Virus record (IMG/VR): IMGVR_UViG_3300037067_013742
Coordinates: 64,001 to 128,000 of that record
Source of the DNA: a virus
Taxonomy: Duplodnaviria; Caudoviricetes
Reading direction: 5' to 3' (one strand)
Length of the DNA stretch: 64,000 bases
Part shown: positions 12,454 to 47,600 of the stretch, in pieces
How the letters are laid out: every line of letters begins with the position of its first letter
Position numbering within the stretch: the first letter of the stretch is position 1
Notes under the pieces: generated by a model
Database searches by the model: none
The model's input: only the letters and a program-made list of their open reading frames with translations
What the model was told of the DNA's origin: nothing
Made by a program: the position numbers and the translations under genes

Positions 12454-12458
12454 AGCAG

Positions 12459-29110: not shown

Positions 29111-29689
29111 ATGGGTGAGTTTGGAACTATCGATGGCGAGCGTGATATTCCGATGGACGACGAAGCTCTAAAGGATATGCTTTCACGTCGGCCTGGATCT
29201 TCTGTAGAGATCGAGAGAGAGGCTCCTCCAGAAATGCCCGTGATCCCTTCTCAGGGAAAGGCAAAGGCCGTAACCCTCCCCCAAGAGAACGAGGGTCCAG
29301 ATAAGGAAATGAAGTCAACAATGCGACTTCCGCCAGAGGATGTTCGTAAGAGACTTAAGGCTAAGTATGGTGAGCTGAAGGTTGTACCAATTCCATATCT
29401 TTCTGGGGATGACGGAGTTCAGTGCTTCGTTATGAAGACTCTTATGCGGAGTGAGTGGCGTGCTGCAGAAGAGTTCGCGGCTAAGACAGCAGAGAGCAAG
29501 CCTGGCGTATCTCCACAAGAGATTCTTGAGGAGAAGGTTGTAGCTAGGGCTATCGTATGGCCTGAATTTCCAGAGAGTGAGTTTCCAGCTCAGCCGGCCG
29601 GTCTAATTACAACCCTATTTGGTATTGCTCAGCAGATGGCCTGCTTCTTTAACCCAGAAGCAATTATGCAGCTTACCTTCTCTCTGTAG
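29111..29689 (+). CDS. Putative tail assembly chaperone 1
   Basis: Between tube and tape-measure genes; LKAKYG..FVMKTLMRSEW..PAGLITTL. Confidence 0.7.
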   Translation: MGEFGTIDGERDIPMDDEALKDMLSRRPGSSVEIEREAPPEMPVIPSQGKAKAVTLPQENEGPDKEMKSTMRLPPEDVRKRLKAKYGELKVVPIPYLSGDDGVQCFVMKTLMRSEWRAAEEFAAKTAESKPGVSPQEILEEKVVARAIVWPEFPESEFPAQPAGLITTLFGIAQQMACFFNPEAIMQLTFSL

Positions 29690-29694
29690 GCTTT

Positions 29695-30372
29695 ATGGAC
29701 CTTGTCGAGCTTAAGAAAAAGTATCGGCAAATATTCTTCCTAAAGCTTGCCGGAACTCAGATAACCTTTCGTCTTCCAACCTGGCGAGAGCACGATATTT
29801 ATGAAAAGGTATTCACCTTTTCTAAAGAGCCAAGGGGTCAGATTGAGGACAAGCTTTTTCGAGAGCTATGTCTCGATCCTATTCTCGTAGATGAGATGAA
29901 TAATCTTCCGGCCGGTATCGTTCCAACGGTCGTTGGGGTTGCCATTCTTCTTTCAGGCAACAACCTCTCAGATCAAGATAAGATAGACAGACTTAATACT
30001 GATCTAGAACTCATAAGAAATGGCGTTAACTCTAATCCATATGAATTTCTTATCATTACAATATGTAAAGCTTTTCCTAGCTTTAAGCCTTCTGAAGTAG
30101 AAGATCTTTCTTATTGGGAAGTTCTTCGGCTATCCGCTATGGCTGAGCAGGTTTTGGCTTTAGAAACACCAATCAAGTTTGTTACAGATAAGAAGCCCAA
30201 GAGTCTTACCGATAAGCTTTTTGAAGATGCCGCGGCAGCAGAAAAGGCCGATTCCGTAGAACGTCCAAAACCAGATAGGCAGCAGGATGCTCGTCGTCCA
30301 GTAACTCCCGAGCAAGTAAGACAAGCTGAGATGATAAGAAGGATTCAGGAAAAGAATCGTAGTGGCCGATAA
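29695..30372 (+). CDS. Putative tail assembly chaperone 2 (paralogue)
   Basis: LKKKY..ITFRLPTWREH..LPAGIVPTV parallels chaperone 1; PSEVEDLSYWE resembles GT-type chaperone C-termini. Confidence 0.7.
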   Translation: MDLVELKKKYRQIFFLKLAGTQITFRLPTWREHDIYEKVFTFSKEPRGQIEDKLFRELCLDPILVDEMNNLPAGIVPTVVGVAILLSGNNLSDQDKIDRLNTDLELIRNGVNSNPYEFLIITICKAFPSFKPSEVEDLSYWEVLRLSAMAEQVLALETPIKFVTDKKPKSLTDKLFEDAAAAEKADSVERPKPDRQQDARRPVTPEQVRQAEMIRRIQEKNRSGR

Positions 30373-30397: not shown

Positions 30398-33300
30398 GTG
30401 GCATATTCCCGCGAAGAATTTAATAGCTATGTAGAAAATGACCTCACCCAAAAGAAGAGTCGTTTTCCCTGGGGTCCAGCTTTAGGTATTGGTATTCCAG
30501 TTGGTGGCTTTCTCATTGGTTCAATGAGAACCAAGTCCGGGGGAAGGGTTTGGGACCACTTCTATAAAGGCCTACAGCACCTTGAAGGTGCTATGCCTAT
30601 GGGCTTTGCGGCAACCTTCCATGGCTCTGAGTTTATGTCTCCCCTGGCCGCGCCGAAATCTTTTCATCTCTCTCCAGAAGATCACCCAGAGCTCTTTAAA
30701 AGTAAGAAGTTTCGCTATTACCTTTCTGAGGTAACTGGCAAAAGAGTTAGCGAACTTAAAAAGCTTGGGGTTTTCGAGAAAGGAGTTAGTTGGAATCAAG
30801 GGTCTGGATACCTTGGAGATCTTAGTGTTACTGGTGGCCCGACTATTGGGACAAACGTCGCCGCCTTATCTACCGGACCAAGACGTAAAGGAACCGCTCT
30901 TGAATGGTTTGCTAGAGTTTCTGGACTAGATGACGCTTCCTTCTTTACTAACCTAGACGAGAAGAAGGGGCTTCGTCCAGCCTGGATGCCTGCTGGTGCT
31001 GGTGGATCAAAAGGAAAACTAGCAGGTAGATACGCAAACTCGGTCTTCTCATGGGCAATGGGAAGAATGAACCTCTTGCTTACATCTCCATTTGACCTGG
31101 AGGTAATGCAAGAGTTTGTTAGTAAGGTTCCACTTCTTCGAAAGCTAAATCTTGGTGTTAAGCCTGGTACTGGCGCCCAAATGTTGTGGCGCTATACCAA
31201 GAAGGCTGGCGTTGCTCTTGGTGCTTATCATCTTCTTAAGTACGGTGACTATCTAGCTAGAGAGCACGGAACTCCTGCTGCTGTTGCTGTTGGAGCTGCA
31301 GTAGGTGCTGGCGCTGGGCTAGCAATAGGTCTCAGAGCAGCTAAAGGAAGGCCCGGACGTTATGCCTTAATCGGGGCTGGAGTTGGAGCTGCATTAGGTT
31401 TAGGCCCCTTCCGTCATGGTCCAATAAGTGGTCTAGCCGAGCTTTATGCTGGAGTACAAACAAACCGAGCCGGGGTTTCTACTGGACTTGGTTTTAGTGA
31501 GGGGAAAAGAAAGACAGAAGATTATTTCCCCGGACTAACCAAACCAACAACTCTAGTTGGAATGGCCGCGATGGGATTAGTTCTAGGAGGTGCCTGGAAC
31601 TGGTCTCAGAAGATGACTCTAGTCAAAGAGTTATCTGGTAAAGGAATTCCTCCAGGTAGTGGTGGGGCTCCAGGAAAAGGCGCTGTTAAAGGCGTCTACG
31701 AGCTTGCTGATAAGCAGATAGCAGATAAGGCAGAGGCAATCCATGATTCCCTAAAAGCCATTGCTGATAAGCAAAAGGGAGTCTCTAAGATAGTTACCCA
31801 GATTCGCCAGAGAATGGCTGGGACTCGGAAGGGTAAAGAGTTTAGTGCTGCTGGCGCTGGCAAATACGCGGCCGTTGGAGCTGGCATATATACAGCTGCA
31901 GCTGTTGTAGGGAGCGCTGTTGCTGGTGATTATGCTGGTGCTGCTTTGCAGACAGTTGCAAGCGTTGGGGCTGCGGTTGCTTATGCTAAGAAGGGTCCTA
32001 CACTAGCTCTTGCAATTCTTGCCCTGCCATTCTTGCGGACTAAGGAAAGCCCAGAAGAGTTAAAGAGAGTCTATAGTGGTGAAGAACAAGTTGCTGTTCG
32101 TTCTGGCCGTTGGTGGGAAGCTGGTCGTACTCCATACGAAGGAGGAAGAGCCTACTATCGTCCGCATAGAGTAGCAATGATGCGTTCGGGTTCTCACGAA
32201 GCTGCCCTTTATGGCTCAGAGAGTAAGTATTGGGAGACCGATCCCGTACTCCATCCACTAAGATTCTTATTTAATCCTTATGAACGAGAGAACCTTATGT
32301 GGGAGCAGGGCTATAAATATCCTGTTTCCAAGACTCCATTTGAAGACTTTCCAGTACTCGGTCCTGTTATGGCCGCAACTATAGGAAGGATTATTAAACC
32401 ACCTCGCTTTCAGGGTAGGAACCAGTGGCTACCAGAAGAATTAGAAGAGGGCCCGAGAGGAATGAGGGAGACTCCTGGAGATGAACCAATTCAAAGAGTT
32501 GGTTTAAGGGGAACTATCTCTGAACAGTTTTATCGGTTGACTGAGTTAGCTGGTTTACCGGGCTTTGCACTAAGTGCAGTTAAAGGAAAGGTTACTGGTT
32601 CTGAAGGTTTCTTCGAAGGACGAAGATGGGCAACTGCTTCTCAGGTATCAGGAGTTCAACCGGCTTATTGGTCTCTAGATATAGGCGGTGCTGCTCTACT
32701 GTGTATTGAAGAGAACGCTATTGTTCAAACTGGCAGAGGATGCATTCCAATAAGAGACGTTGTTATTGGAGATACCGTTACTTCTCGTAATGGTGAAATG
32801 CAGAAAGTCTGCAATATTTCATCCAGACCAGAAAATGATCTTGTAGCTCTAAAGATTAGTGGGCTTGGAGTAGAGTTAAAAGCTACTACAAACCACGTCC
32901 TCCCAGTTTTCAAAGGCTCTATATGTCATTCCCATAATAGTAGGAAGTGCATCCCAAAGAGGGCAAAGCGTTGTGATACTTGCTCAAGAAGAAATCTTTC
33001 GATTCAAGCAATCGATTGTCAAGTTGGAGAGGTTGCTAAAGGGGACTTTGTAGAAGTTCCGTTACCAAGAGATATATATGGAAGCCCTATTTTTGATCTT
33101 AGTTCAGCTAAGGGCTGGTCAGCAGTAACCGAAAAATATGTATATCCCTGCGCGAGCTTTTCATATGCTTTTGCTTGGGAGCTATTGGAGAGAAATCAGT
33201 ATCTAAGCCGGAAGGAGCTTAGAGACTTAGGAATTTCAGATAGTATCGCCAAAGAAGTCCTTTCCGAATTTCGCAATGGGAGCAGTATAAGGAGATGTGA

Positions 33301-35965
33301 ACGTTGGATAAAAGTTAATGAAGATTTGGCATATTTCTTAGGTTGGTATACGGCAGAAGGATATATAAACAACTCTTCCGTATGCTTAGCTCTTCACTTA
33401 AAAGAACACGATATTGCCTGCAGTCTTGGAGAGATTGCTCATAAGTACTTTGGCGCTAGCTACGGCATTTATAAGAATGGGGATAATGGTATTCGGCTTA
33501 GCATTCCTTCTTTTGGGCTTGCGGCCTTTTGTTCAGTTGTTGCTCCTGGAACTGCCATAAACAAGGAGCTTTCTACTATTCTTATGAACTCGTCTCTTAG
33601 TATTAGGGCCTCTTTTCTTCGTGGTTATATGTTGGGTGATGGCTTTATTAGTAGTAATAAATCTAAAGCTGGTATTTCAACATCTAGCCGAATATTGGCT
33701 TCGCAAGCTTTGCTTATCGGACTCTCTCTCGGATTTCATGGTCACTCAACTCTCGACTATTTGGAAGAGGGGGGTGGACTCTACCCTCAAGGGGGCACTA
33801 GAAAAGATACAATACGGTCTTATGTTGTATGGGCGCGAGAAACAGTTAAGTTACTTCCGGAGTTTTTGTCTGGTGATCTGCAAAAGCTTCCAGAGCATGG
33901 GAATAAGTATTCGAGCTTTATTATAGGAGATAAGGCTTATTTCCAGGTTAGTGACATTTCTCATATTCATGGGCAATTTAGGGTCTGCGATCTTGAGATT
34001 GAGAATCTTCATTATTTTACTGCTGAGTTTATAACGGTTCATAACTCAGAATCCGTCCGACGTTACATTCCAAATAGGCGTTCTAGTATAGAAGAGTACA
34101 ACCCTCTTTCATCAGGTCTTCCTAGCTGGCTACCTGGCCCGGATTCTCAGTACTTTCTAGACTTTAGTAAGGCTGACATATACGGAAAGGTAAAAGAGCC
34201 TTGGGCTCGTCTTCCAGGTCCAGGTTATTCACAGCTTCACCCAGAGCTAAAGGGCGTAGATCCAGAGCAATACTCACCCTATCATCGATACCGCGTGCTA
34301 GCTGACGTAGCACCATGGAGCCGTGAGTATGGTGCCTATAACCGAGTAATGTCCAAGTATATGGGAGAAGGTCGGCTTACTCCCGAGCAGATGCTTGAGA
34401 TCCAGGCAACTAGGAAGAGAGTTCTAGAGGTAAAGAAGGCAAGAGATTTCCAGCCTTATATGTACGATAGTGACGCAATCCAGAAGATGACTGTTCGTGT
34501 TACTGGTGAGCTCGAGCCTGGCGTCTATACAACAAATGCTTTTGGTGAGGCTCCAATCGTTATGGCAGGGGTAAACACCTCTGAGCTTTCTCTTGCCTCA
34601 GTTGCTCGCCAAAGAGGAAGTGCTGCTAATGCTCAAGCAGCTATAAGGCAGGGCGCAGCAAAACGAGTAGAGCTTTCTGACTATCTAAGATCTTATATTC
34701 ATCCTGGTGCTGAGGTCGATATCTTTGTCCATAAAGATCCGTCTCTTATGATGGAGTATAGCGACGAAGGTAAACCTCAAGTACAAGCCATCATCTCTGC
34801 TGCCGGAAGAAATATAAACCGTGAGCTTTTAGAAAGGGGCTTAGCTCAAGCAGCGGAAACTAGCGTAACTCTTGACGCAAAGATGGCTGTTGGTCCAGTA
34901 GAGAGAGGTTTCGGCGCAGTCTGGGAGAGGTTTACTCATGGCGCAGAAACTCCTATGGAGAGTTTTACTCCCCTTGCTCCCATAGCTAAGTTTGTTCACC
35001 AGAGATCTGCTCTAGAAGAATATCAGCGTACCGAAGTTTATGGAAAAGACGTAGCTCTCTGGCAGACTCCCGTGAAGAGCTTCTTAGCTCCAGGTTTCTC
35101 TACTATGGCTCATTGGGCTGGTTGGAGAGGCTTACCAGGAGAGGTTCGAGAGCGATATATGGTTGAAGAGTATTTTGATCGCCTCGAATATATGAAATAC
35201 AAACGGCTTGAGTCTGAGGCAAGAGCAAGAGGTGAGGGTCAGGTTGCTGCTCAATATTCAACTCAGTTAGCCAGAACTAAGGTAGGGGCAGATCTTTATA
35301 GCAAGTGGGGACCTCTAATGGCTCTCTCCACAAAAGAGAAGTCATATTTTAGAGAGTTTGTTGAAGCGCCTACTGCTGCAGAGAGGAGAGAAATTTCCCG
35401 TATTGTATCTCCTCAAATGAGAGAGATTCTACATGCTCAGTGGGGGCAGAGAGCTGCTGATGCAGCTAGGGCTAGAATGGAAGCAGGAGCACCACAAGAG
35501 GGTGGAGACCTTGCTTCTATAAACCGCTTTTATGCAATGCAGCGGTCTTCTGAAGCAAGGCAAAGAGCTATTCAACAATCTAACAGCGAGATGCCAGTTC
35601 CCGCCCCTTCTTGGATTGGCTGGGATCCTAAAGCTGAGATGGAAGACTATAAAGTAAAGACCGTTATGGAACAGGGTCTCAACCCTGTTAGTTTTGGTAT
35701 TTGGGGAGGGGACTTGGCTCGTGTTGCTAGACGGCCATGGACTCATCCAATCTCTGTTGCAGTTCAGGGCGAGGCTAATGAAATGGTTTCTCCCGGCGCG
35801 TTAAGAAGCAGCTTTAATATAAGAATGGGAAGAGCGGGGCATAGACCCCCAAGTGCCTTTCTTTCTAGCGCGGGAGATAATGATATAGAAGTTCGATCTC
35901 CTGGTTATGACAGACTAAATCGCTATGCTGGTCCCCGTGGCGATGATACGATTATGCAATTCTAA
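30398..35965 (+). CDS. Tape-measure-like protein with glycine-rich TM segments, an intein and a degenerate thermonuclease-like domain (1407 aa spliced)
   Basis: Directly after the chaperones; several Gly/Ala hydrophobic hairpins; IVMAGVNT...NINRELLERGLA resembles the SNase fold. Confidence 0.7.
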   Translation: MAYSREEFNSYVENDLTQKKSRFPWGPALGIGIPVGGFLIGSMRTKSGGRVWDHFYKGLQHLEGAMPMGFAATFHGSEFMSPLAAPKSFHLSPEDHPELFKSKKFRYYLSEVTGKRVSELKKLGVFEKGVSWNQGSGYLGDLSVTGGPTIGTNVAALSTGPRRKGTALEWFARVSGLDDASFFTNLDEKKGLRPAWMPAGAGGSKGKLAGRYANSVFSWAMGRMNLLLTSPFDLEVMQEFVSKVPLLRKLNLGVKPGTGAQMLWRYTKKAGVALGAYHLLKYGDYLAREHGTPAAVAVGAAVGAGAGLAIGLRAAKGRPGRYALIGAGVGAALGLGPFRHGPISGLAELYAGVQTNRAGVSTGLGFSEGKRKTEDYFPGLTKPTTLVGMAAMGLVLGGAWNWSQKMTLVKELSGKGIPPGSGGAPGKGAVKGVYELADKQIADKAEAIHDSLKAIADKQKGVSKIVTQIRQRMAGTRKGKEFSAAGAGKYAAVGAGIYTAAAVVGSAVAGDYAGAALQTVASVGAAVAYAKKGPTLALAILALPFLRTKESPEELKRVYSGEEQVAVRSGRWWEAGRTPYEGGRAYYRPHRVAMMRSGSHEAALYGSESKYWETDPVLHPLRFLFNPYERENLMWEQGYKYPVSKTPFEDFPVLGPVMAATIGRIIKPPRFQGRNQWLPEELEEGPRGMRETPGDEPIQRVGLRGTISEQFYRLTELAGLPGFALSAVKGKVTGSEGFFEGRRWATASQVSGVQPAYWSLDIGGAALLCIEENAIVQTGRGCIPIRDVVIGDTVTSRNGEMQKVCNISSRPENDLVALKISGLGVELKATTNHVLPVFKGSICHSHNSRKCIPKRAKRCDTCSRRNLSIQAIDCQVGEVAKGDFVEVPLPRDIYGSPIFDLSSAKGWSAVTEKYVYPCASFSYAFAWELLERNQYLSRKELRDLGISDSIAKEVLSEFRNGSSIRRCERWIKVNEDLAYFLGWYTAEGYINNSSVCLALHLKEHDIACSLGEIAHKYFGASYGIYKNGDNGIRLSIPSFGLAAFCSVVAPGTAINKELSTILMNSSLSIRASFLRGYMLGDGFISSNKSKAGISTSSRILASQALLIGLSLGFHGHSTLDYLEEGGGLYPQGGTRKDTIRSYVVWARETVKLLPEFLSGDLQKLPEHGNKYSSFIIGDKAYFQVSDISHIHGQFRVCDLEIENLHYFTAEFITVHNSESVRRYIPNRRSSIEEYNPLSSGLPSWLPGPDSQYFLDFSKADIYGKVKEPWARLPGPGYSQLHPELKGVDPEQYSPYHRYRVLADVAPWSREYGAYNRVMSKYMGEGRLTPEQMLEIQATRKRVLEVKKARDFQPYMYDSDAIQKMTVRVTGELEPGVYTTNAFGEAPIVMAGVNTSELSLASVARQRGSAANAQAAIRQGAAKRVELSDYLRSYIHPGAEVDIFVHKDPSLMMEYSDEGKPQVQAIISAAGRNINRELLERGLAQAAETSVTLDAKMAVGPVERGFGAVWERFTHGAETPMESFTPLAPIAKFVHQRSALEEYQRTEVYGKDVALWQTPVKSFLAPGFSTMAHWAGWRGLPGEVRERYMVEEYFDRLEYMKYKRLESEARARGEGQVAAQYSTQLARTKVGADLYSKWGPLMALSTKEKSYFREFVEAPTAAERREISRIVSPQMREILHAQWGQRAADAARARMEAGAPQEGGDLASINRFYAMQRSSEARQRAIQQSNSEMPVPAPSWIGWDPKAEMEDYKVKTVMEQGLNPVSFGIWGGDLARVARRPWTHPISVAVQGEANEMVSPGALRSSFNIRMGRAGHRPPSAFLSSAGDNDIEVRSPGYDRLNRYAGPRGDDTIMQF
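32702..34045 (+). mobile_element. Intein with LAGLIDADG endonuclease (448 aa) in the tape-measure-like gene
   Basis: LL|CIEENA...TVHN|SE junctions; block B ATTNHVL; LGWYTAEG and LRGYMLGDG; block F VCDLEI..LHYF. Confidence 0.93.
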
Positions 35966-35990: not shown

Positions 35991-38900
35991 ATGGTAAGCC
36001 CATTCAATCTGCTACGAGCAAATGCTTCTATCGATAACCCCTTCGGTGACGGAGAAGATGTCTTAGGTAAGGCCTCTCGCCTGGCTGCTACAGGAGCCCT
36101 TCTTACAGGGGCTGGATACGCTCTCTACCGAGGTTATCAAGATCAGAAGACTTCTGTGCAGCGAGCCGTAGAAAGCGCCAGGAGAGCGATCCAGGGCCCT
36201 TCTGGGTCATTGCCTAGAATGATGACAAGAGCGCCTCTAGAGGTTCAGGAGAAGATGGTAGAAGAAGCCTTTAGAGCTGGGCAAGATACTATGTCTCCTC
36301 TTGGCTGGAGAACCTACCTTAAGAAGGTTTATGAGAGAGCGGCCTATAAAGCCGGTGTTCTTACTGATGATGAAAGAATAAAGTTAGTAGAAGAACTAGG
36401 AGATGTTGGGGGCTCTTGGGAAAACGTAAGGGGTCATCTAAAAGAAAACGAGGGAGTTCTTGGTGGACTGGAGGGGGTCTATTCAGAGATTAGAGAACTA
36501 GCTAATGGTCGTCTTCCCGGAAGAGGAGGGATGAGTGGGGCCGAGTTACTAAGAGATTTCTCTACTGGTACTCCGGGAGCTCCAGAGATTGGGCCACTTC
36601 TTCCAAATCAGCACCGGATGGGTTCTAGTGCTTATGTCAGAAGTGCCTTTGAACCAGAGGGCAGATTTTGGCAAGAGCAGTTTCCATTGGTTCCTAATAG
36701 GGAATCAAACGTAGAGTTGATTGGTGGCGGAGGTTTAAACCAAGCTCAGGCTAGAGCAAAGAAGTTCTCAAGAATGAGTGGTATGTATGTTAAGGCGGGG
36801 GTTAGAGATATTACTCGTGACCGGAACTTTATTGGCGGGAAGGCTGCAAGGAACAAGTTTAATATTGCCGGTACAGGTGAGGTAAGCCTTACCATGAATG
36901 AGTATCAGGTTGGTGGTAAGGGTAGCCGCCACTTCTTCCAAATACCAAACGCAAAAGAGATTAAGACTAATGTTGGTAGTGTCATGCTTGCTGCTGCAGA
37001 CCATAGGGGCATGGGTTTCTCTGCTGTTGGTAAGTGGACCATTCAGGTAAAGGGCAAAGACGGGAAGTTGACTAGGAAGGTTGTCGACTGGAACACCGGC
37101 ATCAACACTCTTGTTTTTGGTGGGGAGGGACTATCTTCTGGTAGCTCTTTAACAGAAAGACTACACGCTGCTGCTGGCGATGCAAGAGAGCAACGTAGAA
37201 TTCTAGATAACTTTAAGACCGAAGTTAGTGCTCTTATGTATAGAGTTGATGGATCTCAAGCCTCTATGACCCAGGCTTTGTTCCATAGTGAATCGGCCGT
37301 CCCTATAGAGTTGTCGGCTGAAAGGATTATGGATCCTAACTATCGCAATACTATGGATCAGGTTAAAAACCACTGGGACGAGATGGTTAAGTCTGGCCAT
37401 AATATAGGGCCAATGTCTAGTGCTACTTCTATGGGTGAAAGGTCTCGAGTTTCTCTTCGTGATTGGGCGGGCGAACTAGATGTCTTTGGGGCTAACTATC
37501 CAATGGAAAGGAAGTTCGCTGGTCGCTTCAGGGGAAATTATTCTCTGAGTCCTAGAGCAAGAGAGGCAATGGAGACACGCCCTATTATGGGTAAAATCCC
37601 TAGATCTATGCCTACGACAGCAACTTCAAGATTTGGAGAAGTTGTATCTAATAAAACTCCCAACGTCTTTACTTACTACTCTCTAAAAGAGATGAAAGAC
37701 TTGCGACCTGAGGAGGCCGTTCTTTCTAGAACAGTTGCTCCAATGGTTGAGTTTACCGAGAAGAAGACATATGAAGTCGCGCGGGGTACAACTAGAGCCG
37801 CTATTGGAGAAGAGCTTTCTACCAACCAAAGCCTAGGGATAGATTACAGGACCGGGAAAGAGATTAGGTCTGCTGCATCAGAAGGTCATATGACCGAGAG
37901 GATTCTAGGAGCAGTAGATAAAGGAGATCTTATCGAGTTAGAAGTTGAGCGAACTGTCCCATTTCAAGATGGGTTGAAGGGTTATACCCGTAAGGTTAGA
38001 TATCGAATAGCTAGAGAAAGTATGACAGAAGAACTAGCTCATCAGTTTGGGATTAATGCTCAAAGCCCTGTATATAAGTATAGCCACCATATAGAAGCCG
38101 CAATGGACGTAGAGGCCCTAAAGAAGATTCCAGGAGAGGTTTACGGACAGATGGCAAGCGGCCTTCAGTATATTGCTGCAGACAAACTAAAGGGTGTTCG
38201 TTCTAGAAGAAGAGGGAAGGGGAGGGGGAGAACTTTTGGCCCAAAGAAAGGATTCCAAAAGTATAGGAATGCCCATGTTAAAGATATGTGGAATTACGTC
38301 AACAATGCCGACTTGAGAGAGAAGTATCTTACGCGAGTTGCTAAAGAGGGTGAGAGCCTAGCTCGACAGTTTGGTCTAAGCGAGAACCTTCTTCATCACG
38401 GAGCTGGCTTGGGCCTTCTCAAGAAGGCAGCTGGTTGGAATCTTAGCTCTTCCGATATTGGGTTAATTGGTGGCTTTTTCCATAAGCAGCTTTTCTCTGC
38501 TCTGGGTGGAGATATGGCCGCCTCTCAAAAGATGGGAGAGATCTATAGGGGCATTGGACTTTCGACTAGCGACATTAAGGCCCTTATGACTTCTCAGGGG
38601 GTAATAGGAGGCCACGCTCTAAACATTGGAGATGTTGACTCTCTAAAGGTTGTCGAAAGAGCTGGCCTAGATCCTCGTGGTCTATTAGAAATAAAGGCTC
38701 AGGATTGGGGACAATTGGGAGACGACGTTATAGCTGAGTTCGCAAGAAGAATTCCAGATAGAGGAATGGGTGAACTGATTACGGCTACCAAGTCCATGGT
38801 TGGCTTGGCCGCAGACATCCCCGAAGGAACTAGGGGGGTCGAGAATGCGGCAGAAGCTATGGAGCTCATCGGTAAAGAGAACTTTGTCTGGAAGGGCGGG

Positions 38901-40724
38901 GGACGAGAGCTATATATTCCAGCCGCTGCTGGTGGGCATATGGGTGAATATACCCAGGAGGTTGGTGAGAGGGCTGATATGCCCCTCAAGAAAGCCTACC
39001 GTCAATATATTGAGGCAAGGGGACGAATTACAGACTACGAAGGAATGATGTCTGGGACTGACTATCAAGACCTTCCAGACTATGAAGCTTTAAAAGTTAA
39101 GGCCACAGAGTTAGAGGATGCTCTTCGTAATCAACTTGGTCATGAGATGCTAGGCTCAACTTCTCTTAGGGGAAAGATCTTTGGTTCATTAGAATTGACG
39201 GCTAGTACCTGGACCGGATCAAAAGCCTCATCTCATTTAAGTATTGAGTATGGAAGTATAGACGAGCTACTTAACGATCATAAGAATCTCTTCGTGTCTG
39301 GCATAACAGAGAAGTCATATAAGAGATTACACAACGACTTAATGAGAGTTGCCAGCGAAAAAGAGAAAACCTTCTTACAGGATCAATACAGACGTTTTAT
39401 GGCCGGCGAGAACATTCCCACAATGGAATGGAGAAACCCTCTTATTGGCCCCCAAAGTATGACACCTGGATATATTCGTAGAGTAGAAGCCGATGCAGAG
39501 GGCATATATATCAAGAAGATGACGCTCAATAAGGATGGTAGGGCTGTCGATGTTTCTGGTATGGCTGCTAAGTCTGGTGATATGGACGGCGACCAGATTT
39601 CCCTAATGCTTATGGGAGACGAGAAGGTTGCCGCTGAGATAGACAAGACCCTACATTCTGCTAGTTGGAGAAAAGATTATGTAGCAGCTCTAGAGAGGAA
39701 GCAGGACCTAGAGAAAGCTATTGCTGCCTCTGCTGCCGGGAGAGACCTCGGTCGAGCTAACTATGAGGGGTTGACTCGCCATGTTGGCGTCAAGATGGAG
39801 ACCGGTATGATCTCCACTCTTGTAGATGATATGAAGGCTACGGCTGCTTTTAACGCTTCGAGCAAAGAAGAATACACAATAATGTCCGAAATCTTTGCTC
39901 GTATGTCGCAGGCCCCAATTTCTTCCAAACATGGTCTTTACGCTAGTGAAGTAAGCGATTTGCTAGATGAGTTTGTCTCTAAAGACAAGGGTCGTGTTAG
40001 CGGTGCATTAGAAGATGTATGGGACATCCTTATGGGAGAGGGGAAGGTTGAGGGCTATAACAAAGAAGAAGTTATCAGTAAAGTAAAAGGCTGGGTCCAA
40101 ACCTCTTCTAATAATGGAGAGTTGTCAGCTCATCGTGCTGTTTGGCGCGCGGCAAATAAAGCAGCTAAAGGTGGGATTGCCGGAGAAGTTTCAGAAGATG
40201 CCCTAGTTCATATTATCAAAATGATGGAGAGTGGTAAGGGAGATCTAAATGCTGCTCTTGTTAGAGAGATGAGGATGGGGCCCGGCTCTGGTATTTCTGC
40301 CTCTAGAGCAACAGTAGAGGCTGCTAGTAATCTAGGTGGAATGGCTATCAATGCCTTCAAGAAGCACTGGAAGTATCCAGCAATGGGCGCAGCTGTGGGT
40401 CTTGGTATTGCTGCTTTAGGCGCGGGAACATCTATAGCTATGCCACGAGAAGACGCTTCTATGAAAGCGACAGAACTTATGGCCAGTCGTGGTCCAGCCG
40501 AACTTCAGATGCCAAGCGGAATTCAGAATAGAATTCTTACTTCTGGCGGGGGCGGGATGCAGGCCGGATACAGAATGTCGTATAGTGGTGATCTGAATAG
40601 TTCTGGAATGAATGACTTAGCTGGATTTGGAGCTGGTGTTGGTGGTAGGGTTACTGTGAGAGATAACCGAGGAGCTATATCTCCTCAGTATATAGATAAA
40701 GCTCAAGACGAAAGGTATATCTGA
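35991..40724 (+). CDS. Putative virion single-chain two-barrel RNA polymerase in the tape-measure locus
   Basis: Beta'-like WRNP (R1148) and GDMDGDQ (D1197/D1199/D1201, nt 39579-39593); beta-like EEAVLS (E574) and DGLKGYTRK (K663/K668); hydrophobic segments near both termini. Confidence 0.7.
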   Translation: MVSPFNLLRANASIDNPFGDGEDVLGKASRLAATGALLTGAGYALYRGYQDQKTSVQRAVESARRAIQGPSGSLPRMMTRAPLEVQEKMVEEAFRAGQDTMSPLGWRTYLKKVYERAAYKAGVLTDDERIKLVEELGDVGGSWENVRGHLKENEGVLGGLEGVYSEIRELANGRLPGRGGMSGAELLRDFSTGTPGAPEIGPLLPNQHRMGSSAYVRSAFEPEGRFWQEQFPLVPNRESNVELIGGGGLNQAQARAKKFSRMSGMYVKAGVRDITRDRNFIGGKAARNKFNIAGTGEVSLTMNEYQVGGKGSRHFFQIPNAKEIKTNVGSVMLAAADHRGMGFSAVGKWTIQVKGKDGKLTRKVVDWNTGINTLVFGGEGLSSGSSLTERLHAAAGDAREQRRILDNFKTEVSALMYRVDGSQASMTQALFHSESAVPIELSAERIMDPNYRNTMDQVKNHWDEMVKSGHNIGPMSSATSMGERSRVSLRDWAGELDVFGANYPMERKFAGRFRGNYSLSPRAREAMETRPIMGKIPRSMPTTATSRFGEVVSNKTPNVFTYYSLKEMKDLRPEEAVLSRTVAPMVEFTEKKTYEVARGTTRAAIGEELSTNQSLGIDYRTGKEIRSAASEGHMTERILGAVDKGDLIELEVERTVPFQDGLKGYTRKVRYRIARESMTEELAHQFGINAQSPVYKYSHHIEAAMDVEALKKIPGEVYGQMASGLQYIAADKLKGVRSRRRGKGRGRTFGPKKGFQKYRNAHVKDMWNYVNNADLREKYLTRVAKEGESLARQFGLSENLLHHGAGLGLLKKAAGWNLSSSDIGLIGGFFHKQLFSALGGDMAASQKMGEIYRGIGLSTSDIKALMTSQGVIGGHALNIGDVDSLKVVERAGLDPRGLLEIKAQDWGQLGDDVIAEFARRIPDRGMGELITATKSMVGLAADIPEGTRGVENAAEAMELIGKENFVWKGGGRELYIPAAAGGHMGEYTQEVGERADMPLKKAYRQYIEARGRITDYEGMMSGTDYQDLPDYEALKVKATELEDALRNQLGHEMLGSTSLRGKIFGSLELTASTWTGSKASSHLSIEYGSIDELLNDHKNLFVSGITEKSYKRLHNDLMRVASEKEKTFLQDQYRRFMAGENIPTMEWRNPLIGPQSMTPGYIRRVEADAEGIYIKKMTLNKDGRAVDVSGMAAKSGDMDGDQISLMLMGDEKVAAEIDKTLHSASWRKDYVAALERKQDLEKAIAASAAGRDLGRANYEGLTRHVGVKMETGMISTLVDDMKATAAFNASSKEEYTIMSEIFARMSQAPISSKHGLYASEVSDLLDEFVSKDKGRVSGALEDVWDILMGEGKVEGYNKEEVISKVKGWVQTSSNNGELSAHRAVWRAANKAAKGGIAGEVSEDALVHIIKMMESGKGDLNAALVREMRMGPGSGISASRATVEAASNLGGMAINAFKKHWKYPAMGAAVGLGIAALGAGTSIAMPREDASMKATELMASRGPAELQMPSGIQNRILTSGGGGMQAGYRMSYSGDLNSSGMNDLAGFGAGVGGRVTVRDNRGAISPQYIDKAQDERYI

Positions 40725-43426
40725 TGCCTGGTGACGAAGAGACTGTTGACTGGGAAGCTAATCTCCAGAGTATCGGGGTTCCAGCTGAATCCCAGACTCA
40801 GAGAGCTCCGAGAAGAACGCCCCGTAGGCAACCAGTAAGCTCTCACTGGGAAACAGAGATGCAGACTCTAGAGGGGGCAACTGAAACTACTGCCGACTAT
40901 CTTCGCGGGACTTCAGAGTGGAGAGGTGAAGAGTATGCTGCGATTCAGGCTCACGATGTAGCTAACGCAGAAGCGAATAGAGGTACGCCGCATCCAAGTC
41001 GGTCTGAGCTTTATCAGCAGTGGAAAAATGCAGGGCAGGCAAGGCTAAGAACTTTAACCGAGCGATTTGGTCAAGACGCAATGGTTCTTGGCCATCTCTT
41101 ATTTAAGATTCCGCCACTTGCTATAAGGATTCGTAAAAGTAATATTACTTATCGTTGGAAACCCTTAAGAACCAAAGAGTCCATTGCTGTTAAGTCTGGT
41201 AGTGGTGAAGCTTGGATTGAAGTAGATCTTGCTTTTGTAGGACTAAACCAAATCAATACTTCTCTTGGTGGTTTAATCACACTTTGGAAGAAGTCTCCTA
41301 TCTGTTTCATAGAGAATCTATATATCAGGGAAAATATGCTTCCTGAGAATGATGTAGATTCTATGGCTGTTCGATTAGAGAATCTAGTTATTGATGTTGC
41401 CGCGGGAACTCCAGATGCAGTTTGGGTTACTGCGATGATGTGTTGGTTTAACTGGAAACCATTCTCCCAGAACTTCTGGTTTAGAGAGACATGGGAGGCA
41501 ACCGAAGACCAGCAGACCGAGGGTGGTAATTCAGGTACGGCAACTACTACTTCTACCGAAGAGAGAGCTTCTGCCAATAGCATAGTCGATCTTTCTGTAT
41601 TAGAAACTCCAGGTATTGTCTCTTCTTCTAATCCAATGGAGGCAAGGCTTTCACATGTGGTCCAAATTAATGATCCTGGTGATCCACTTGTCCGTCCTAC
41701 TCAGCCTGTTGTTTATCCCTTTAACTCACAACCTTTTATGGACTATATGTCGAGTGGACCAGATGTAGCTCCTCCGATAAGTGAGTGGACTGATAACGTT
41801 ACGATGAACTGGAAGTCTTTAAAGAGGTTGCTTGTTCCTCAGCAGTGGCAGTGGGATCTCAATCATCCGCCGGAGGTTCCGGCATCAGTTCTGGTTAGTG
41901 CGCCCCCCACATCTTCGCCACAAGCAAGCCCTGTTGCGGTTACTGGACCGAGGGATATTGTCATATTTATGGGCGACTCTATCATGAAAGGTATCTGTGG
42001 GTCTGGCCATGAAAACTTAACCTTTGGCGGATCAAATCCGACCTATGATCCTAATACCGACTATCTAAAAAGTGGTTGTTCTAATATACCCCCGCACCCA
42101 AGGTTTACTTATTACTCATTAGCCCTTTCTGGAATTGGAAGCGCCAACCTAAAGAGGGCGTGGAATAAGAGTAAGACAAATTCGGCTCTTAAGGTTTCTG
42201 GTGGGGCAAACCTTAGTCGGGTTGCTGGAGTGGTTATTCTTTGTGGGCTAAACGATGGAAATAACTACCCGACAGCGCTAAATTCTCTAATCGATATAAT
42301 GCAAGATGTTAGTAGCGCTGGTGCAATTCCAATCCTTCTACCACTTCCCCCTGAAGGTGATTCTTTAAATGCCACGCCCCATATCTATAGTGGCTTGAGA
42401 AGTACTGGTGCAAGTACAGCCTGGCGAGAGACGGGAACTAATACTTGGTTGGCAAATGTTAACTCTTATCATCAGTCTGCCATTACTCGTGTTCAAAACG
42501 AAGTGCCTAATGGTTGGGGTCCGGGTCGGGCTGAAACTGATTATCATGCAGATGCTTGCGAGGTGGGAACTAGTAGGACTGATAGGTCTCTCCCGCTAAA
42601 GCGAGACTACATGACGACTCCTACGACCCATTGGTCTGACCCAACAGGAGCTGGTCGACAGTTTTACAACTACCATCCAAAGGCGCAGGCTAATACTCGG
42701 CTAGCTGCTTGGATTGAGCATAGGCTACCTTGGAATGCGTTTTCTGGACAGAATGACACCTCTAGTCCTGCATCAAATGCTTATACCGTTACAGATATAG
42801 AAGACGGAGATACCATAACTGTTCGACAGGGAGCTGGTGCTGAAATAAAGCTTCGTCTAAAGAATATCGATACCCCAGAAACCTATGGAGCTCGTCCTTC
42901 TTACAATATGTCTTTGGGTACTGGCGCTTACTCAAATGCCGATGTTCTTCGTTGGATGCCTCACGCTCAAGATAGTTGGAGACCGGCAGATCAGCAGTGG
43001 GGAGCTAAAGCAAAGGCAAAGTTGGTAGAGCTTACTGGTGGGGTTAACGCAACGATAAGAGTTGAGCAGCATGGTAACGATTACTACGGTCGTAAACTTG
43101 CTACCATATTTAAAGGTGATGTAAACATCAACCTGAGGTTAGTTGAGCTTGGGTTGGCTTGGGCGAGTACAGGTGGAACTGACGGAACCCAGGGTGGGCC
43201 ATACGAGATAGCAATGGCAGAAGCCGGCGGTCCAGTCCCAGATGCAGATCCGAGAAGGCCAAAGGTTGGGATGTGGGCAAGCCCCACCGCGGTATTGTCT
43301 GGATATCCATCTGATATTCCAACAACTATTAGAAGTGTTCTTGAGAGAATGCAGTTTCCCAAAGACTTTAGAAGGGACTATCCTTCTGGTGAAGATACCT
43401 GGCGGGCTGAGCCAGCTGGTGATTAG
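40724..43426 (+). CDS. Baseplate-region protein: tube-initiator-like N-terminus, SGNH/GDSL hydrolase, thermonuclease (SNase)
   Basis: SGNH: IFMGDSI (S419), CGLND, YHP. SNase: DGDT (D694), LRLKNIDTPE, DYYGRKLA, INLRLVELGLA, GMW. Confidence 0.85.
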   Translation: MPGDEETVDWEANLQSIGVPAESQTQRAPRRTPRRQPVSSHWETEMQTLEGATETTADYLRGTSEWRGEEYAAIQAHDVANAEANRGTPHPSRSELYQQWKNAGQARLRTLTERFGQDAMVLGHLLFKIPPLAIRIRKSNITYRWKPLRTKESIAVKSGSGEAWIEVDLAFVGLNQINTSLGGLITLWKKSPICFIENLYIRENMLPENDVDSMAVRLENLVIDVAAGTPDAVWVTAMMCWFNWKPFSQNFWFRETWEATEDQQTEGGNSGTATTTSTEERASANSIVDLSVLETPGIVSSSNPMEARLSHVVQINDPGDPLVRPTQPVVYPFNSQPFMDYMSSGPDVAPPISEWTDNVTMNWKSLKRLLVPQQWQWDLNHPPEVPASVLVSAPPTSSPQASPVAVTGPRDIVIFMGDSIMKGICGSGHENLTFGGSNPTYDPNTDYLKSGCSNIPPHPRFTYYSLALSGIGSANLKRAWNKSKTNSALKVSGGANLSRVAGVVILCGLNDGNNYPTALNSLIDIMQDVSSAGAIPILLPLPPEGDSLNATPHIYSGLRSTGASTAWRETGTNTWLANVNSYHQSAITRVQNEVPNGWGPGRAETDYHADACEVGTSRTDRSLPLKRDYMTTPTTHWSDPTGAGRQFYNYHPKAQANTRLAAWIEHRLPWNAFSGQNDTSSPASNAYTVTDIEDGDTITVRQGAGAEIKLRLKNIDTPETYGARPSYNMSLGTGAYSNADVLRWMPHAQDSWRPADQQWGAKAKAKLVELTGGVNATIRVEQHGNDYYGRKLATIFKGDVNINLRLVELGLAWASTGGTDGTQGGPYEIAMAEAGGPVPDADPRRPKVGMWASPTAVLSGYPSDIPTTIRSVLERMQFPKDFRRDYPSGEDTWRAEPAGD

Positions 43427-43437
43427 GGAGAAGCACT

Positions 43438-44673
43438 ATGTCAGACTGGGACCTCTCGCCGTTTAATCTTTCTCCCTCAATATGGGGGACGATTTACTTT
43501 CGGTCTGCTGTTACTACGACTCCTCGTCGGCATCCTATTACGGCTGATGACGTTTTATGGTTAGCCGCATCTGCTGCCCACGAAGATATAGAGTCAACCT
43601 TTTGTATTTGGTGCGAAATACAAAAATTTTGTGGTGGTAATGGGACCAACTTAGCTAATTTTGTTGCTTTATTTTCTGCTCCAGTAAATCCCAACTTTGC
43701 GTTTGGGCTAGAGCACTTTTCTTCTGGTCGTCTGCTATCTGAACCATCGGCTGGAGCCAACGGGATTCCTCCTCGAGTACCGGGTCCTTCTGACGAATCT
43801 CGTCGCCCGGAATTTCAGGCCTGGTATCGGGCCAACCCAAATGGGGGAAGGCCTCCTCCCTCGGTTGCAAGATGGGACCGTCTTACTATTTGGGAGCGAG
43901 AGTGTCTATCGAGAGGAGAATTTAGACGAGCTCAGTTAGTTGGGGGTTGCTCTCCGGCTGTTAGAGCTGAGATTTGGGCAAATATGCGGTTAGCCAAGAA
44001 TAGGGATAATGATGCTTGGCTTAGATTGAGTAGACGATACTCAGCTAATATAGCAGCTTATCATATCTGTACTGGCCAGTGGGGGAATCCAATACCTGGT
44101 TTTGACGACTTCGCTTCGCAGAATTCCATTCGCAGTGAAGTTACTATTCTTTCGGATAATCAAGCTGATCGAAGCCGTGTTCTATCTGAACTTTACGTAG
44201 GTGCTGGTCGTCGTGGATACGATCCAACAGCAAGGGCTTTTGCATTTGGGAACACTAGGGCTACTGATGCCTTTCAGTACCATAAGACTCCACGTATGCG
44301 AGAAGCCGAAGCTCTTGTTTGGATCGTACCATCTTCTACTATTGGAGGAGACGATACTCGTCGTCGGCCAGTTACTACCGTTGCTTTAAACGGGGCGGTT
44401 CCTGGAGTGATCTATTCTGGTGGACGAAGTCGGTATGTTCCTCCTCGTTCTGGGGGAGTAGTAGAAACTACTCAAGAAGGTCTTGCTCCAACAGAAGCAG
44501 TACCAGCTGGAACTAGCGCCATGTCTAGTTCCTCAACAAATACTCAAACTAATACAACCTCTGACCCCATCGCCGTTCCTCCTCCTAGGGCAGAGATTAT
44601 GCAGGGTCTAGTAAGTTGGGCCGATGGAGCTGAGATTCAGCTTGGACAGTCGGGCGGAGGTCGGAGACAATAA
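43438..44673 (+). CDS. Hypothetical baseplate-region protein, possible divergent cell-wall hydrolase
   Basis: SD GGGAG; DDVLWLAASAAHE resembles the SleB/Hydrolase_2 catalytic helix; no further motif confirmed. Confidence 0.45.
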   Translation: MSDWDLSPFNLSPSIWGTIYFRSAVTTTPRRHPITADDVLWLAASAAHEDIESTFCIWCEIQKFCGGNGTNLANFVALFSAPVNPNFAFGLEHFSSGRLLSEPSAGANGIPPRVPGPSDESRRPEFQAWYRANPNGGRPPPSVARWDRLTIWERECLSRGEFRRAQLVGGCSPAVRAEIWANMRLAKNRDNDAWLRLSRRYSANIAAYHICTGQWGNPIPGFDDFASQNSIRSEVTILSDNQADRSRVLSELYVGAGRRGYDPTARAFAFGNTRATDAFQYHKTPRMREAEALVWIVPSSTIGGDDTRRRPVTTVALNGAVPGVIYSGGRSRYVPPRSGGVVETTQEGLAPTEAVPAGTSAMSSSSTNTQTNTTSDPIAVPPPRAEIMQGLVSWADGAEIQLGQSGGGRRQ

Positions 44674-47600
44674 TGGGACCGGTATTTCCTGAATCGACAG
44701 CTATTACTTCTCCAGAAAGCCCTGGAGTTAATGCCGGTTGGGTTTGGGCGCCTAAAGTAGATCCAACTTCTGGTGAGTATGGCGTTTTTATTAATAATAG
44801 TAATCAGATAGATCTTCCTACTAGCGGAACTGTTATTAGTAGTATGAGAGTAGTTCTCTCTAATACCTTCGCTACCTTACCGGTATGCGGGCATGCTTAT
44901 GCTACTGCCCAATTTATGGGAAGAGGATCAACAGAAGTTTCTTTTCAGCTAAGTGGGGTTGGTAACTATCAGCTATCACGCCTTCAGGCAATGATGGAAG
45001 AGTGTGAAAAGAACGCTAGAGACTTCAGGAGGATTAAGGGTGCCGCACAAGTTGACTTCTCAAACAATCCCCTCCTAACTCTATGCGGAATAAAGGATGG
45101 CATCGTAGCTGGAGTCGACGCTAAAACTGAAGAGGGGTATACCGATTTATATCGCATGACTCTTTCCTTCACATCAGAAGGACATCACGCCGAATCTTGG
45201 GAACAGGAGAACTTTACAGCTAGTTCATCTTTTATGCAGATTCTAGATGCCCTTATGTCGAACATAAGAGTTGTAGAGGAAACTTACGCACAATCACTTG
45301 CGCGACTAAATAACCCAACCTCATTACAGATTCTTGCCTGGCCAGCTTACGTTCCAATTAGAAGCATGGGTGGAAGATATGGTCAGCTTGTTACTTCTGC
45401 AGATGGGATCTTTGAAGTCATCTCAGCACAAGGACAGATAAACGTAAACAGAGCAAGAGATGCATTTGTAGATGAAGAAAGACTTCGTCCAAGTTTTGGT
45501 CATGGGACTACACCGCTTGGTACTTCGTTTAATGCTGGAGAAAGAGCTGTAATTGCAGCTCCTATTTTGACCGCGGCTAGAAGGGAAGATATTGGTACTG
45601 CTTGGTATGAGTCAAACCAAGGAAGTGGCTTGACTTGGATGTCCAATGTTTGCGAGGAATTTGTCGAGCTTCTTAATGACTTAATGCCAACACTTCCGCC
45701 AATCTCGTTCTTTAGAGGGCCCGATAAGGGAATATATCAGAGAGTCGTGGCATCTTCTTCCGAGCTAATGACTGGAACTCTTAGAGAGACACCTCCATTA
45801 TTTGCACGACAAGATAGCTCGCTCGTACAAGCAATGAGAGGGTTAAGGACCCAATGGTCAACACCAGATGCTATCAAGCAAGCTCTTCTTCGGGCTCAGG
45901 GTCTTCTGATGAGCTTTGCCCAAGAGACATTCTGGAACTATGTTGGAGAGCCTAGCTTTGAAGTCTATTTTCCGGGCGTAAGAGATAGGGTTATTGGTTC
46001 TCGTGAAAATTCACTTAATCCAGCTTATCCAGATCTTGATCTGCCAGCTCACCCAAAAACTCATAGCGTTTTGGACACTAACCCAGACTTTTATTTCTTT
46101 AACGATTCCGAAGAGGGAATGTTAAATGAAATAGGCCCAGAGCTCATCCGGGAAATGGATTATCGGCTTGAGCAATCTGAGCTTTCAATGCAGATGCTAG
46201 CAAGTGGTGGAACCTGGAGTGAAACCTATATGGGTCGGTCTAGGATTGGGCCAGATGATCCAGCTGCATATACCGGCTCAATGAGTGATGAGGAACCAAC
46301 CTTTCCAATGGACGGTAGTCCATCTTCTCCACTAACTCTTGATTCTGCTGGTGATGAGGGAGGCGTTGGTCGATTACTTTCTGGTCGGACCGGTGGTTTT
46401 GAGGAGAGTTTAATAGATGCGTTGGTTGGTACTAGCCCAGTGGCTAGATCTTCTAGAAAGAACACGGAGTTACGAGCAAACCGCCGTAGGATGCTAGAAC
46501 AGACAACCCTAGCTATACCAGAGGGTTCTGCAACTTCGCCTCTTGGTCTTGGAGCTGTTGATACAACTGTTTCTCCTGGTGATAGGTCACAGTCTTTTAC
46601 TCGTAACTTTGTAAGGGAGACTCTCCAACAAGGGCTTGTTCAAAGTCCAGAGACCTCTCTTACAATGAGGAGAGCCTTCCCAACATTTAAGATTTACTTC
46701 CTTGAGGACGATATTGGCGATCAGGCAAGAGACCATCTCATGGAGGCAACTCCCAATGGGGCCCTTTCTGGCCTTAGAACTGTTATGGCTTTTGATGACT
46801 TTTATAACTATAACTCCGTTAAGGAAATTCGGCTTGTCAGGAGCCGTAAGAATCCTGCTGACTTATTAGTCCTTACTCTAACTAACGTAGCTGGTCTTCT
46901 TGAAAGAAGGATCTGGGGTCCTAATAATGATTTCCCGACAGAGGCTTATGCTGCTGGGCTTGAGGAGACAGAGCTTGAAAACCCACTAAAGAAGCTGATT
47001 CTGAAAGAGGGGCTGAAGGTTCAAGCTCGCTTGGGATATGTCAATCATCCACATGGGATGAATATCAAGTTTGTGGGCGAAGTTGTTGAGGTTTCTTTTA
47101 ACGCAGAATGTTCAGATGAGGTAACAATCATCTGTCAAAGTTATGGTGCAGAATTAGTATTAGAGCCAAAGGGTATTGCTAGTGATGGAAGGGTAACTTT
47201 TAACGATACTCCTGACATCGTTCACACGATGATGTGCTCTCCTGAACTAGCACATTTTGGGCGGTATTCTTTAAATCCTCAGTACAATCCGGCAGAGGCT
47301 AGAGGAGAGGCCACTTCATTAAACGTGGGTCGTGGTAGTGCTGGGCTTGGGATTATATCTAACCCTCACAACGTATCTGCTTGGATGAGAGACCATCTCC
47401 TCTATCTCAGGAGTCGATATATAATTTCTAATAACCCAGCCGACGATAATATCTATGCGCCGAATGTTAAGCAGCTGTCCGGTCTATGGGAACAGTTCTG
47501 GGCGAATACCGGAGATTGGTTTCAAGCCTACTCTGACTTTCAGAGAGGTCTTAACGATGCCATTATGAGCGTCCCAGTTATCAACTGGATCCATACAATA

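Follow-up and report, generated by a model that had tools for sequence, protein, structure and literature searches.

The open reading frame (ORF) at positions 35991–40724 of the window, by which we mean the whole stretch of 64,000 nucleotides analyzed here (bases 64001–128000 of a 229,064-bp IMG/VR virus record rated complete by CheckV), lies on the plus strand, starts at an ATG, and encodes a protein of 1577 amino acids (aa). With a probability of about 0.68, this protein was assigned as a compact single-chain, DNA-dependent two-barrel RNA polymerase (RNAP) that is made late, carried in the virion, and ejected to transcribe the first phage genes. Its homology to the two-barrel RNAPs is close to certain; the predicted enzyme is very likely to be catalytically active, and its delivery in the virion, suggested by gene position, synteny, hydrophobic segments, and analogy, is probable. 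A sequence-only reading of the same DNA had proposed a very divergent single-chain two-barrel RNAP at this locus, and this central call was borne out for both barrels by residue conservation, by the predicted structure, and by a profile match to E. coli beta' that was weak but fell in the right place.

Family and conservation of the catalytic residues

A word-indexed homologue search with the 1577-aa protein returned two relatives only (42% and 34% identity). An exhaustive HMMER search, in which a three-sequence profile of aa 500–1420 served as the query, retrieved 137 cluster representatives (50% clustering) at E ≤ 1e-3, 68 of them at E ≤ 1e-10. The members of this family, all metagenomic, are mostly 1430–1560 aa long and share a common core around aa 1095–1315. 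The 1577-aa protein had no matches in Pfam, PHROGs, or the PDB sequences, and the family profile gave only chance matches against the PDB sequences; likewise, tblastn of the protein and two family members (P0089 and P0027) against GenBank phages returned nothing, and a pattern scan of IMG/VR for the family yielded no relatives.

Residues were counted in an alignment of 110 near-full-length members. The aspartates D1197, D1199, and D1201 were invariant (110/110), as were G616, P977, and P1150, while R1148 was found in 109 and S1156 in 106 of the sequences. The GDMDGDQ stretch contains the sole D.D.D of the 1577-aa protein, and each near-full-length member was shown to possess one DxDxD at the same relative place, with the consensus G-[ML]-A-G-D-x-D-x-D. 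The R1148-x-P1150 motif lies 49 residues before D1197, and the R-x-P-x5-S pattern at 1148–1156 presumably agrees with that of eukaryotic Rpb1. A six-frame scan of the 229-kb genome for RxP-x5-[SGA]-x20-70-DxDxD returned only the polymerase locus and one trivial DCDCD string, indicating that this signature is rare by chance. These counts settled in favor of the sequence-only reading a check that it had itself proposed, namely, the conservation in homologues of RxP and of the aspartates of DxDGD.

Eight residues are invariant in all two-barrel polymerases: D481, D483, D485, R446, and P448 of Rpb1, and D837, K979, and K987 of Rpb2 (PMC2919709). The three Asp, the Arg, and the Pro of this set are clearly present in the 1577-aa protein; R1148 and P1150 appear to correspond to R446 and P448 by pattern and position, the profile alignment described below being misregistered in that stretch. 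K663 and K668 are probable candidates for the two invariant lysines of the beta barrel (K979 and K987). Lys was found at 663 in 106 members and at 668 in 103, with Arg in a further five, and Phe or Tyr occupied position 665 in 102; the earlier guess that these two lysines serve on the beta side fits with their conservation of 96% and 94%. Q720 was also highly conserved (105/110). As for the remaining acidic residue, EEAVLS resembles the ED motif of beta and is a candidate for the equivalent of Rpb2 D837. The motif lies where the sequence-only reading had placed it, but its proposed E574-E575 pair held only in part: no conservation was seen at E575, and most members, though not all, have an acid somewhere in 573–575, a region where the alignment is staggered.

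The four motifs named in that reading were found exactly at the positions given there, EEAVLS at 574–579, DGLKGYTRK at 660–668, WRNP at 1147–1150, and GDMDGDQ at 1196–1202, and the segment it had described as sandwich-barrel-like, AAIGEELSTNQSLG, was found at aa 603–616.

Predicted fold and match to cellular RNAP

An AlphaFold2 model of aa 480–1420, built from the 110-sequence alignment, was obtained with a mean predicted local distance difference test (pLDDT) score of 92.1 and a predicted template modeling (pTM) score of 0.90. In a Foldseek search of the PDB, the model gave 134 matches at E ≤ 1e-3, of which the top 50 were all bacterial beta' chains (best, 5vi5_D, E 1.2e-5), and RNAPs also ranked top in an exhaustive PDB alignment. 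Structure prediction followed by Foldseek, another check proposed by the sequence-only reading, thus returned a high-confidence model with RNAPs as its closest matches. Stand-alone double-psi beta-barrel domains (a designed one, VAT-N, and CDC48-N) matched model positions 584–761, the stretch holding R1148 and the Asp triad, and DGLKGYTRK fell within the segment structurally aligned to the beta barrel. These structural matches indicated that one chain combines a beta-like module with a beta'-like module placed after it. In the model, two double-psi beta-barrel domains would jointly form the active site, the property by which membership in the two-barrel polymerases is recognized.

At the sequence level, alignment of the family profile with E. 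coli beta' (MG1655 translation) by hhalign gave an E value of 3.1e-4 and a probability of 39.5%, with DxDxD falling on NADFDGD, and RGKxxGS on the switch-2 stretch RQNLLGKR. The corresponding comparison with E. coli beta gave nothing useful. The residues of the RGKIFGS motif were well kept in the family (R1060, 94/110; G1065, 105/110; S1066, 94/110). Switch 2 and the funnel, both adjoining the beta' barrel, distinguish the DNA-dependent clade from the RdRP/YonO clade (PMC2919709), and RGKIFGS is a candidate for the former element. A further conserved loop, E-Q-x-P-I-S-x-K-H at 1306–1314 (E at 1306 in 107/110, the 1577-aa protein having S1306; I1310, 106/110; K1313, 109/110; H1314, 97/110), sits beyond the second barrel, between the helices at model positions 813–828 and 833–851, and is possibly trigger-loop-like. 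The modules and motifs are listed in Table 1.

Table 1. Features of the predicted polymerase gene and of the surrounding virion module, in window coordinates
Feature	Position	Strand	Basis
Whole gene, predicted single-chain two-barrel RNAP with terminal hydrophobic segments	35991..40724	+	ORF list, translation, family of ~137 cluster representatives
N-terminal Gly/Ala-rich, weakly hydrophobic segment, aa 30–48	36078..36134	+	sequence, G40 conserved 82%
Helical bundle, aa ~80–229, without informative structural match	36228..36677	+	
Alpha/beta region, aa ~249–500, weak collinear likeness to the N-terminal part of RNAP beta/Rpb2-type subunits	36735..37490	+	
Beta-like module with first double-psi barrel, aa 480–890	37428..38660	+	
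EEAVLS, aa 574–579, candidate beta ED / Rpb2 D837 acidic motif	37710..37727	+	equivalence from pattern
DGLKGYTRK, aa 660–668, K663/K668 candidate active-site lysines of the beta-like barrel	37968..37994	+	conservation
Beta'-like module, aa 937–1420	38799..40250	+	
RGKIFGS, aa 1060–1066, switch-2-like motif	39168..39188	+	conservation, hhalign
Second double-psi beta-barrel, aa ~1065–1221	39183..39653	+	
WRNPLIGPQS, aa 1147–1156, R-x-P-x5-S motif of the beta' barrel	39429..39458	+	conservation
GDMDGDQ, aa 1196–1202, predicted catalytic metal-binding DxDxD loop	39576..39596	+	conservation, hhalign
E-Q-x-P-I-S-x-K-H loop, aa 1306–1314, between two long helices	39906..39932	+	conservation, model
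C-terminal Gly/Ala-rich hydrophobic segment, aa 1464–1482, candidate membrane-inserting	40380..40436	+	hydropathy
Extreme C-terminal module with conserved RD-x-R, aa 1524–1570	40560..40700	+	conservation, hhalign to gp146
Portal-like gene	12423–14585	+	
Capsid	17699–18994	+	
Sheath (DUF2586)	22962–24842	+	
374-aa gene after the tube gene	25581–26705	+	
786-aa intein-bearing gene before the chaperone-position genes	26714–29074	+	
Two chaperone-position genes	29111–29689 and 29695–30372	+	
Giant gene at the tape-measure position, 1855 aa, LAGLIDADG intein	30398..35965	+	intein matches, BLASTP
SNase and lysin-like protein, 900 aa, start overlapping the polymerase stop	40724..43426	+	Pfam SNase 1.9e-9, PHROG endolysin-type match
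Baseplate J	50011–51291	+	

Tail-operon context

All large genes of the window lie on the plus strand and together form a virion module, and the DUF2586 sheath gene confirms that the tail is contractile. The tail genes make up a gap-free late operon, running from sheath and tube through the 374-aa and 786-aa genes, the two chaperone-position genes, and the 1855-aa giant to the polymerase, which is followed by the 900-aa SNase/lysin protein, a 411-aa protein, a 1391-aa lysin-like protein, and the baseplate genes. The polymerase gene thus does occupy the place claimed for it by the sequence-only reading, between the tape-measure-like gene and the baseplate genes, with lysin- or hub-like genes preceding baseplate J. 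The same gene order was observed around P0004 (locus L001, 34% identity) and the distant P0020 (locus L002, ~20% identity), and in the window and both of these loci the polymerase was an ORF separate from the tape-measure-position gene, unlike the fusion of the P23-45 gp96 type. The 1855-aa giant, whose intein-free homologues are 1384 and 1396 aa long, matched ME3_35 of Acinetobacter phage vB_AbaM_ME3 in BLASTP (6e-24, 3e-23, and 2e-19), a protein related by its annotators to gp145, a virion protein of Bacillus phage 0305phi8-36.

The gap upstream of the polymerase gene is 26 nt, and the start of the downstream gene overlaps its stop. A scan for sigma-70 promoters and terminators around the gene gave chance-level results. 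Since the gene would be co-transcribed with the tail genes, the polymerase is expected to be made late. A genome-wide search revealed no canonical RNAP (PF00623 and PF00562) and neither a paralogue nor another RxP...DxDxD signature; nor was a T7-type RNAP found in the genome, in a search made without a positive control. Outside the window, at 157449–157991 of the genome on the minus strand, a 180-aa ORF scored 18.9 bits for Sigma70_r2, short of the cut-off of 24, and may represent a phage sigma-like factor for the host RNA polymerase. With this ORF and no other detectable RNAP in the genome, it can be speculated that later genes depend on the host enzyme.

Terminal regions

The sequence-only reading had placed hydrophobic Gly/Ala segments near both ends of the protein. 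The C-terminal one was clear: aa 1464–1482 reached a Kyte–Doolittle value of 1.58, and such a segment was found in 68 of the 110 relatives at a threshold of 1.4, with G1466 and P1485 conserved at 93% and 94%, respectively. The N-terminal one fell below the threshold of 1.2 in the 1577-aa protein, and 32 of the 110 relatives passed the hydropathy threshold there. Within the extreme C-terminal module, D1558 (95%) and R1560 (86%) of the RD-x-R motif were conserved, and hhalign matched this module to the last 50 aa of 0305phi8-36 gp146 (E 1.5e-4, probability 51%). A separate model of aa 50–500 had a pLDDT of 86.7 and a pTM of 0.64, and its Foldseek search against the PDB gave no significant match.

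With respect to the N-terminus itself, the database gene call (P0002, 1501 aa) begins 76 codons 3' of the ATG at 35991, skipping window positions 35991–36218. Residues 1–76 of the 1577-aa protein were alignable with the homologues P0003 and P0004, which supports the longer start; the shorter gene call is probably wrong, as the N-terminus that it skips is conserved in homologues.

Counterparts in cultured phages

In a Foldseek search of BFVD, one of the best matches to the model was A0A172Q021_2 (E 2.5e-8, TM 0.36/0.42) of phage vB_AbaM_ME3, which we traced to ME3_36, a hypothetical protein of 1603 aa. ME3_36 is of similar length and occupies the same slot, between the gp145-related virion structural protein ME3_35 and the hub ME3_37, and carries motifs at matching places: REPxxxxxS at 1174, GGDHDQD at 1217, and KFFSVGSK at 632. 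The hhalign comparison of its beta-like barrel with the family (E 2.1e-4) aligned KFFSVGSK with DGLKGYTRK. ME3_36 has, however, diverged beyond detection by HMMER or BLAST and is annotated only as hypothetical: the family hidden Markov model had no match in ME3 or in Microcystis phage Ma-LMM01, BLASTP of the 1577-aa protein against ME3_36 and gp146 gave chance-level segments only, and the C-terminal profile matched ME3_36 with an E value of 0.07. Literature searches returned no functional or proteomic data on ME3_36.

In 0305phi8-36, the same slot of a related structural module is held by gp146, a protein that mass spectrometry detected in the virions and whose annotation reads hypothetical tape measure protein. 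It shares similar last ~50 residues with the family; in contrast, it is 2537 aa long, has no DxDxD and no profile similarity to the polymerase core, and is not a polymerase. Since gp146, ME3_36, and the polymerase family are all found there, this slot appears to be reserved for a large virion protein, which in ME3 and in the polymerase family is a predicted polymerase.

Two further observations were made in these cultured phages. In ME3 (KU935715), a 798-aa ORF at 224453–226849 on the minus strand (BFVD A0A172Q0S6, E 4.1e-4 to the model) ends in ...HVRNPS, immediately after an R-x-P motif, and a reading frame with SDVDGDH follows ~1.4 kb downstream on the same strand. Another two-barrel RNAP, in split form, thus seems to be present in ME3; an insertion into the gene of a non-virion enzyme may account for it. 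Protein segments of Ma-LMM01 and MaMV-DC were among the best viral structural matches to the polymerase model, and Ma-LMM01 (AB231700) carries on its minus strand a 3562-aa ORF at 57700–68388 with GDFDGD at 2537 and a 1673-aa ORF at 43811–48832 with GDADGD at 1348; this phage may also encode unrecognized two-barrel polymerases.

Comparison with known polymerases

Compared with the multisubunit RNAP cores (bacterial beta/beta', Rpb2/Rpb1, those of the nucleocytoplasmic large DNA viruses, and the non-virion RNAPs of phiKZ and AR9), the protein studied here combines the beta-like and then the beta'-like module in one ~1577-aa chain, has no detectable Pfam RNAP domains and no evident alpha or omega partner, clamp, or zinc element, carries its lysines 5–6 residues apart, and is encoded in a tail operon. 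Both of the precedents named in the sequence-only reading proved to be real. In the Thermus siphovirus P23-45, the RNAP is the N-terminal part of gp96, a 5002-aa tape measure protein (PDB 8H2M and 8H2N; PMC10770324), and crAss-like phage phi14:2 has the virion RNAP gp66 (PDB 6VR4; 10.1101/2020.03.07.982082); transcription of early genes by virion two-barrel RNAPs has been established for both (PMC10770324; 10.1101/2020.03.07.982082). The present gene differs from gp96 in being a stand-alone gene after the tape-measure-position gene of a myovirus, and the protein shows no detected sequence similarity to gp96 and seems structurally nearer to the beta/beta' subunits than to gp96. With gp66 it shares the single-chain, virion-type, two-barrel character and a DxDxD-type loop, and the two could be aligned over 397 residues across both barrels. 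QDE-1 and plant RDR2 (RNA silencing) and P74-26 gp62 (a non-virion early RNAP of the P23-45 gp64 type) have other roles, show no sequence similarity to the present protein, and lack a tail-module context.

P23-45 already provides an example of a single-chain two-barrel RNAP of the virion type encoded near the tape measure (PMC10770324). The present family differs in the absence of any detectable sequence relation to gp96, gp66, QDE-1, or the Pfam RNAP domains, in its occurrence as a separate gene of ~1500 aa in myovirus tail operons, and in its modules, which are closer to cellular beta and beta' than to the known single-chain phage enzymes. Full-text literature searches retrieved no paper describing the family, the 23 RNAP family alignments of PMC10770324 lying outside this comparison, and the family is absent from the lists given in the jumbo-phage reviews of 2021 and 2026.

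Proposed mechanism and alternatives

The active site of the predicted enzyme would lie between the beta-like barrel (K663 and K668) and the beta'-like barrel (R1148/P1150 and D1197-x-D1199-x-D1201), as in cellular RNAPs. The Asp triad would bind the catalytic Mg ion, as in all two-barrel enzymes, and the two lysines on the other barrel would contact the substrate phosphates (PMC7824862). Following its late synthesis, the polymerase would most likely be incorporated into the virion at or close to the tail, beside the gp145-like protein of the tape-measure position. Ejected with the DNA, it would carry out the earliest phage transcription independently of the host RNAP, in the manner established for gp96 and gp66. 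The Gly/Ala-rich hydrophobic segments, together with the conserved C-terminal module, may tether it at the membrane channel.

Several points weigh against this assignment. On the enzymatic side, the lysines are spaced by 5–6 residues compared with 8 in the cellular enzymes, and their equivalence is drawn from position within the aligned segment; the beta-side acid equivalent to Rpb2 D837 is not universal in the family; and no PDB chain was matched by sequence profile, the hhalign matches reaching probabilities of only 40–50%. As for the proposed role, the N-terminal segment (aa ~30–48) is weak in the 1577-aa protein, a k-mer search of the intergenic regions of the genome detected no convincing shared promoter motif, and the large compact fold must either unfold or be stored outside the tube lumen for ejection. 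What the analysis established is the fold, the conservation of the motifs, the extent of the family, and the synteny; the activity, the DNA template, the virion location, the injection, and the membrane tethering are inferences.

The protein could instead itself be the tape measure, i.e., a tail-lumen length determinant that carries an RNAP as P23-45 gp96 does, rather than a separate cargo. The annotation and virion presence of gp146 in the same slot, the likeness of the two C-termini, and the narrowly kept length of the family would all suit such a role. However, a tape measure is expected directly after the chaperone pair and as an extended helical protein, and it is the upstream gp145-like gene that holds this place; moreover, the prediction for about 940 of the 1577 residues is a globular enzyme of compact shape (pLDDT 92) and no extended helical ruler, and gp146 shares neither the DxDxD nor the core profile. 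We regard a tape measure bearing an RNAP as unlikely, and a tape measure proper was rejected in view of the gp145-like gene in that position and the compact enzyme core.

The same fold and catalytic residues would equally serve an active two-barrel RNAP that is not packaged and works in the infected cell, for instance on late genes, its location among tail genes being incidental, and such non-virion phage enzymes do exist (P23-45 gp64 and those of phiKZ and AR9). This explanation, which we hold to be quite improbable, is at odds with the strict tail-operon position kept across very distant relatives and ME3, with the terminal hydrophobic segments, and with the resemblance of the C-terminal module to the virion-proven gp146; in addition, a late operon cannot supply an enzyme for early or middle genes unless this is carried over in the particle. 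Only a very slight chance was given to a two-barrel polymerase with another substrate, such as an RNA-dependent RNA polymerase, a replication primase-like enzyme, or a PolD-like DNA polymerase. An inactive structural relic was ruled out because the catalytic residues are invariant across very deep divergence.

The virion-carried RNAP might be pictured more specifically, in a form that we put forward as doubtful: the beta and beta' cores of the cellular-type enzyme, fused in minimal form (~940 residues), would reside in the contractile tail, be threaded out with the tape-measure-position protein, and be anchored in the cytoplasmic membrane by both terminal hydrophobic segments; transcription there would help to draw in the 229-kb genome. 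Tail-delivered transcription would then be widespread in a large lineage of big, as yet uncultured myoviruses that have ME3 and 0305phi8-36 as relatives.

To our knowledge, injected two-barrel RNAPs have been experimentally established in a few lineages only, namely, the phiKZ-like multisubunit enzymes, crAss-like gp66, and Thermus gp96. The present family would add a large, sequence-unrelated one (~137 clusters at 50% identity) in contractile-tailed phages. Its members would rank among the most compact cellular-type RNAP cores, bearing on the evolution of the two-subunit enzyme and on minimal orthogonal transcription tools. The family also suggests that many large uncultured phages begin infection without the host polymerase, which bears on host takeover and on resistance to defenses against early transcription. 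ME3 being a cultured phage, the link to ME3_36 opens the presence in virions, the activity, and the early promoters to direct study.

Other features of the window and the genome

The two large genes after the polymerase, at 40724–43426 and 44673–48848, were found to contain an SNase nuclease domain and lysin-type regions (PHROG 20474, 8809, and 452), and the L001 homologue of the 900-aa protein combines SNase with Amidase_2. They likely encode hub or tail-tip proteins with cell-wall- and nucleic-acid-degrading parts. LAGLIDADG/Hint inteins were located in three genes of the structural module, those at 30398–35965, 26714–29074, and 6494–9637, the last being a 1047-aa gene upstream of the portal. 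The virion module opens at 432–4823 with a 1463-aa protein, in which aa 1111–1245 gave a weak protein-kinase match (E 1.1e-4, below the Pfam cut-off). The genome as a whole is two-armed: ~96 kb (59.9–155.9 kb), with the virion and glycan genes, is on the plus strand and the rest almost all on the minus strand; the two arms diverge near 59.5 kb and converge near 155.85 kb.

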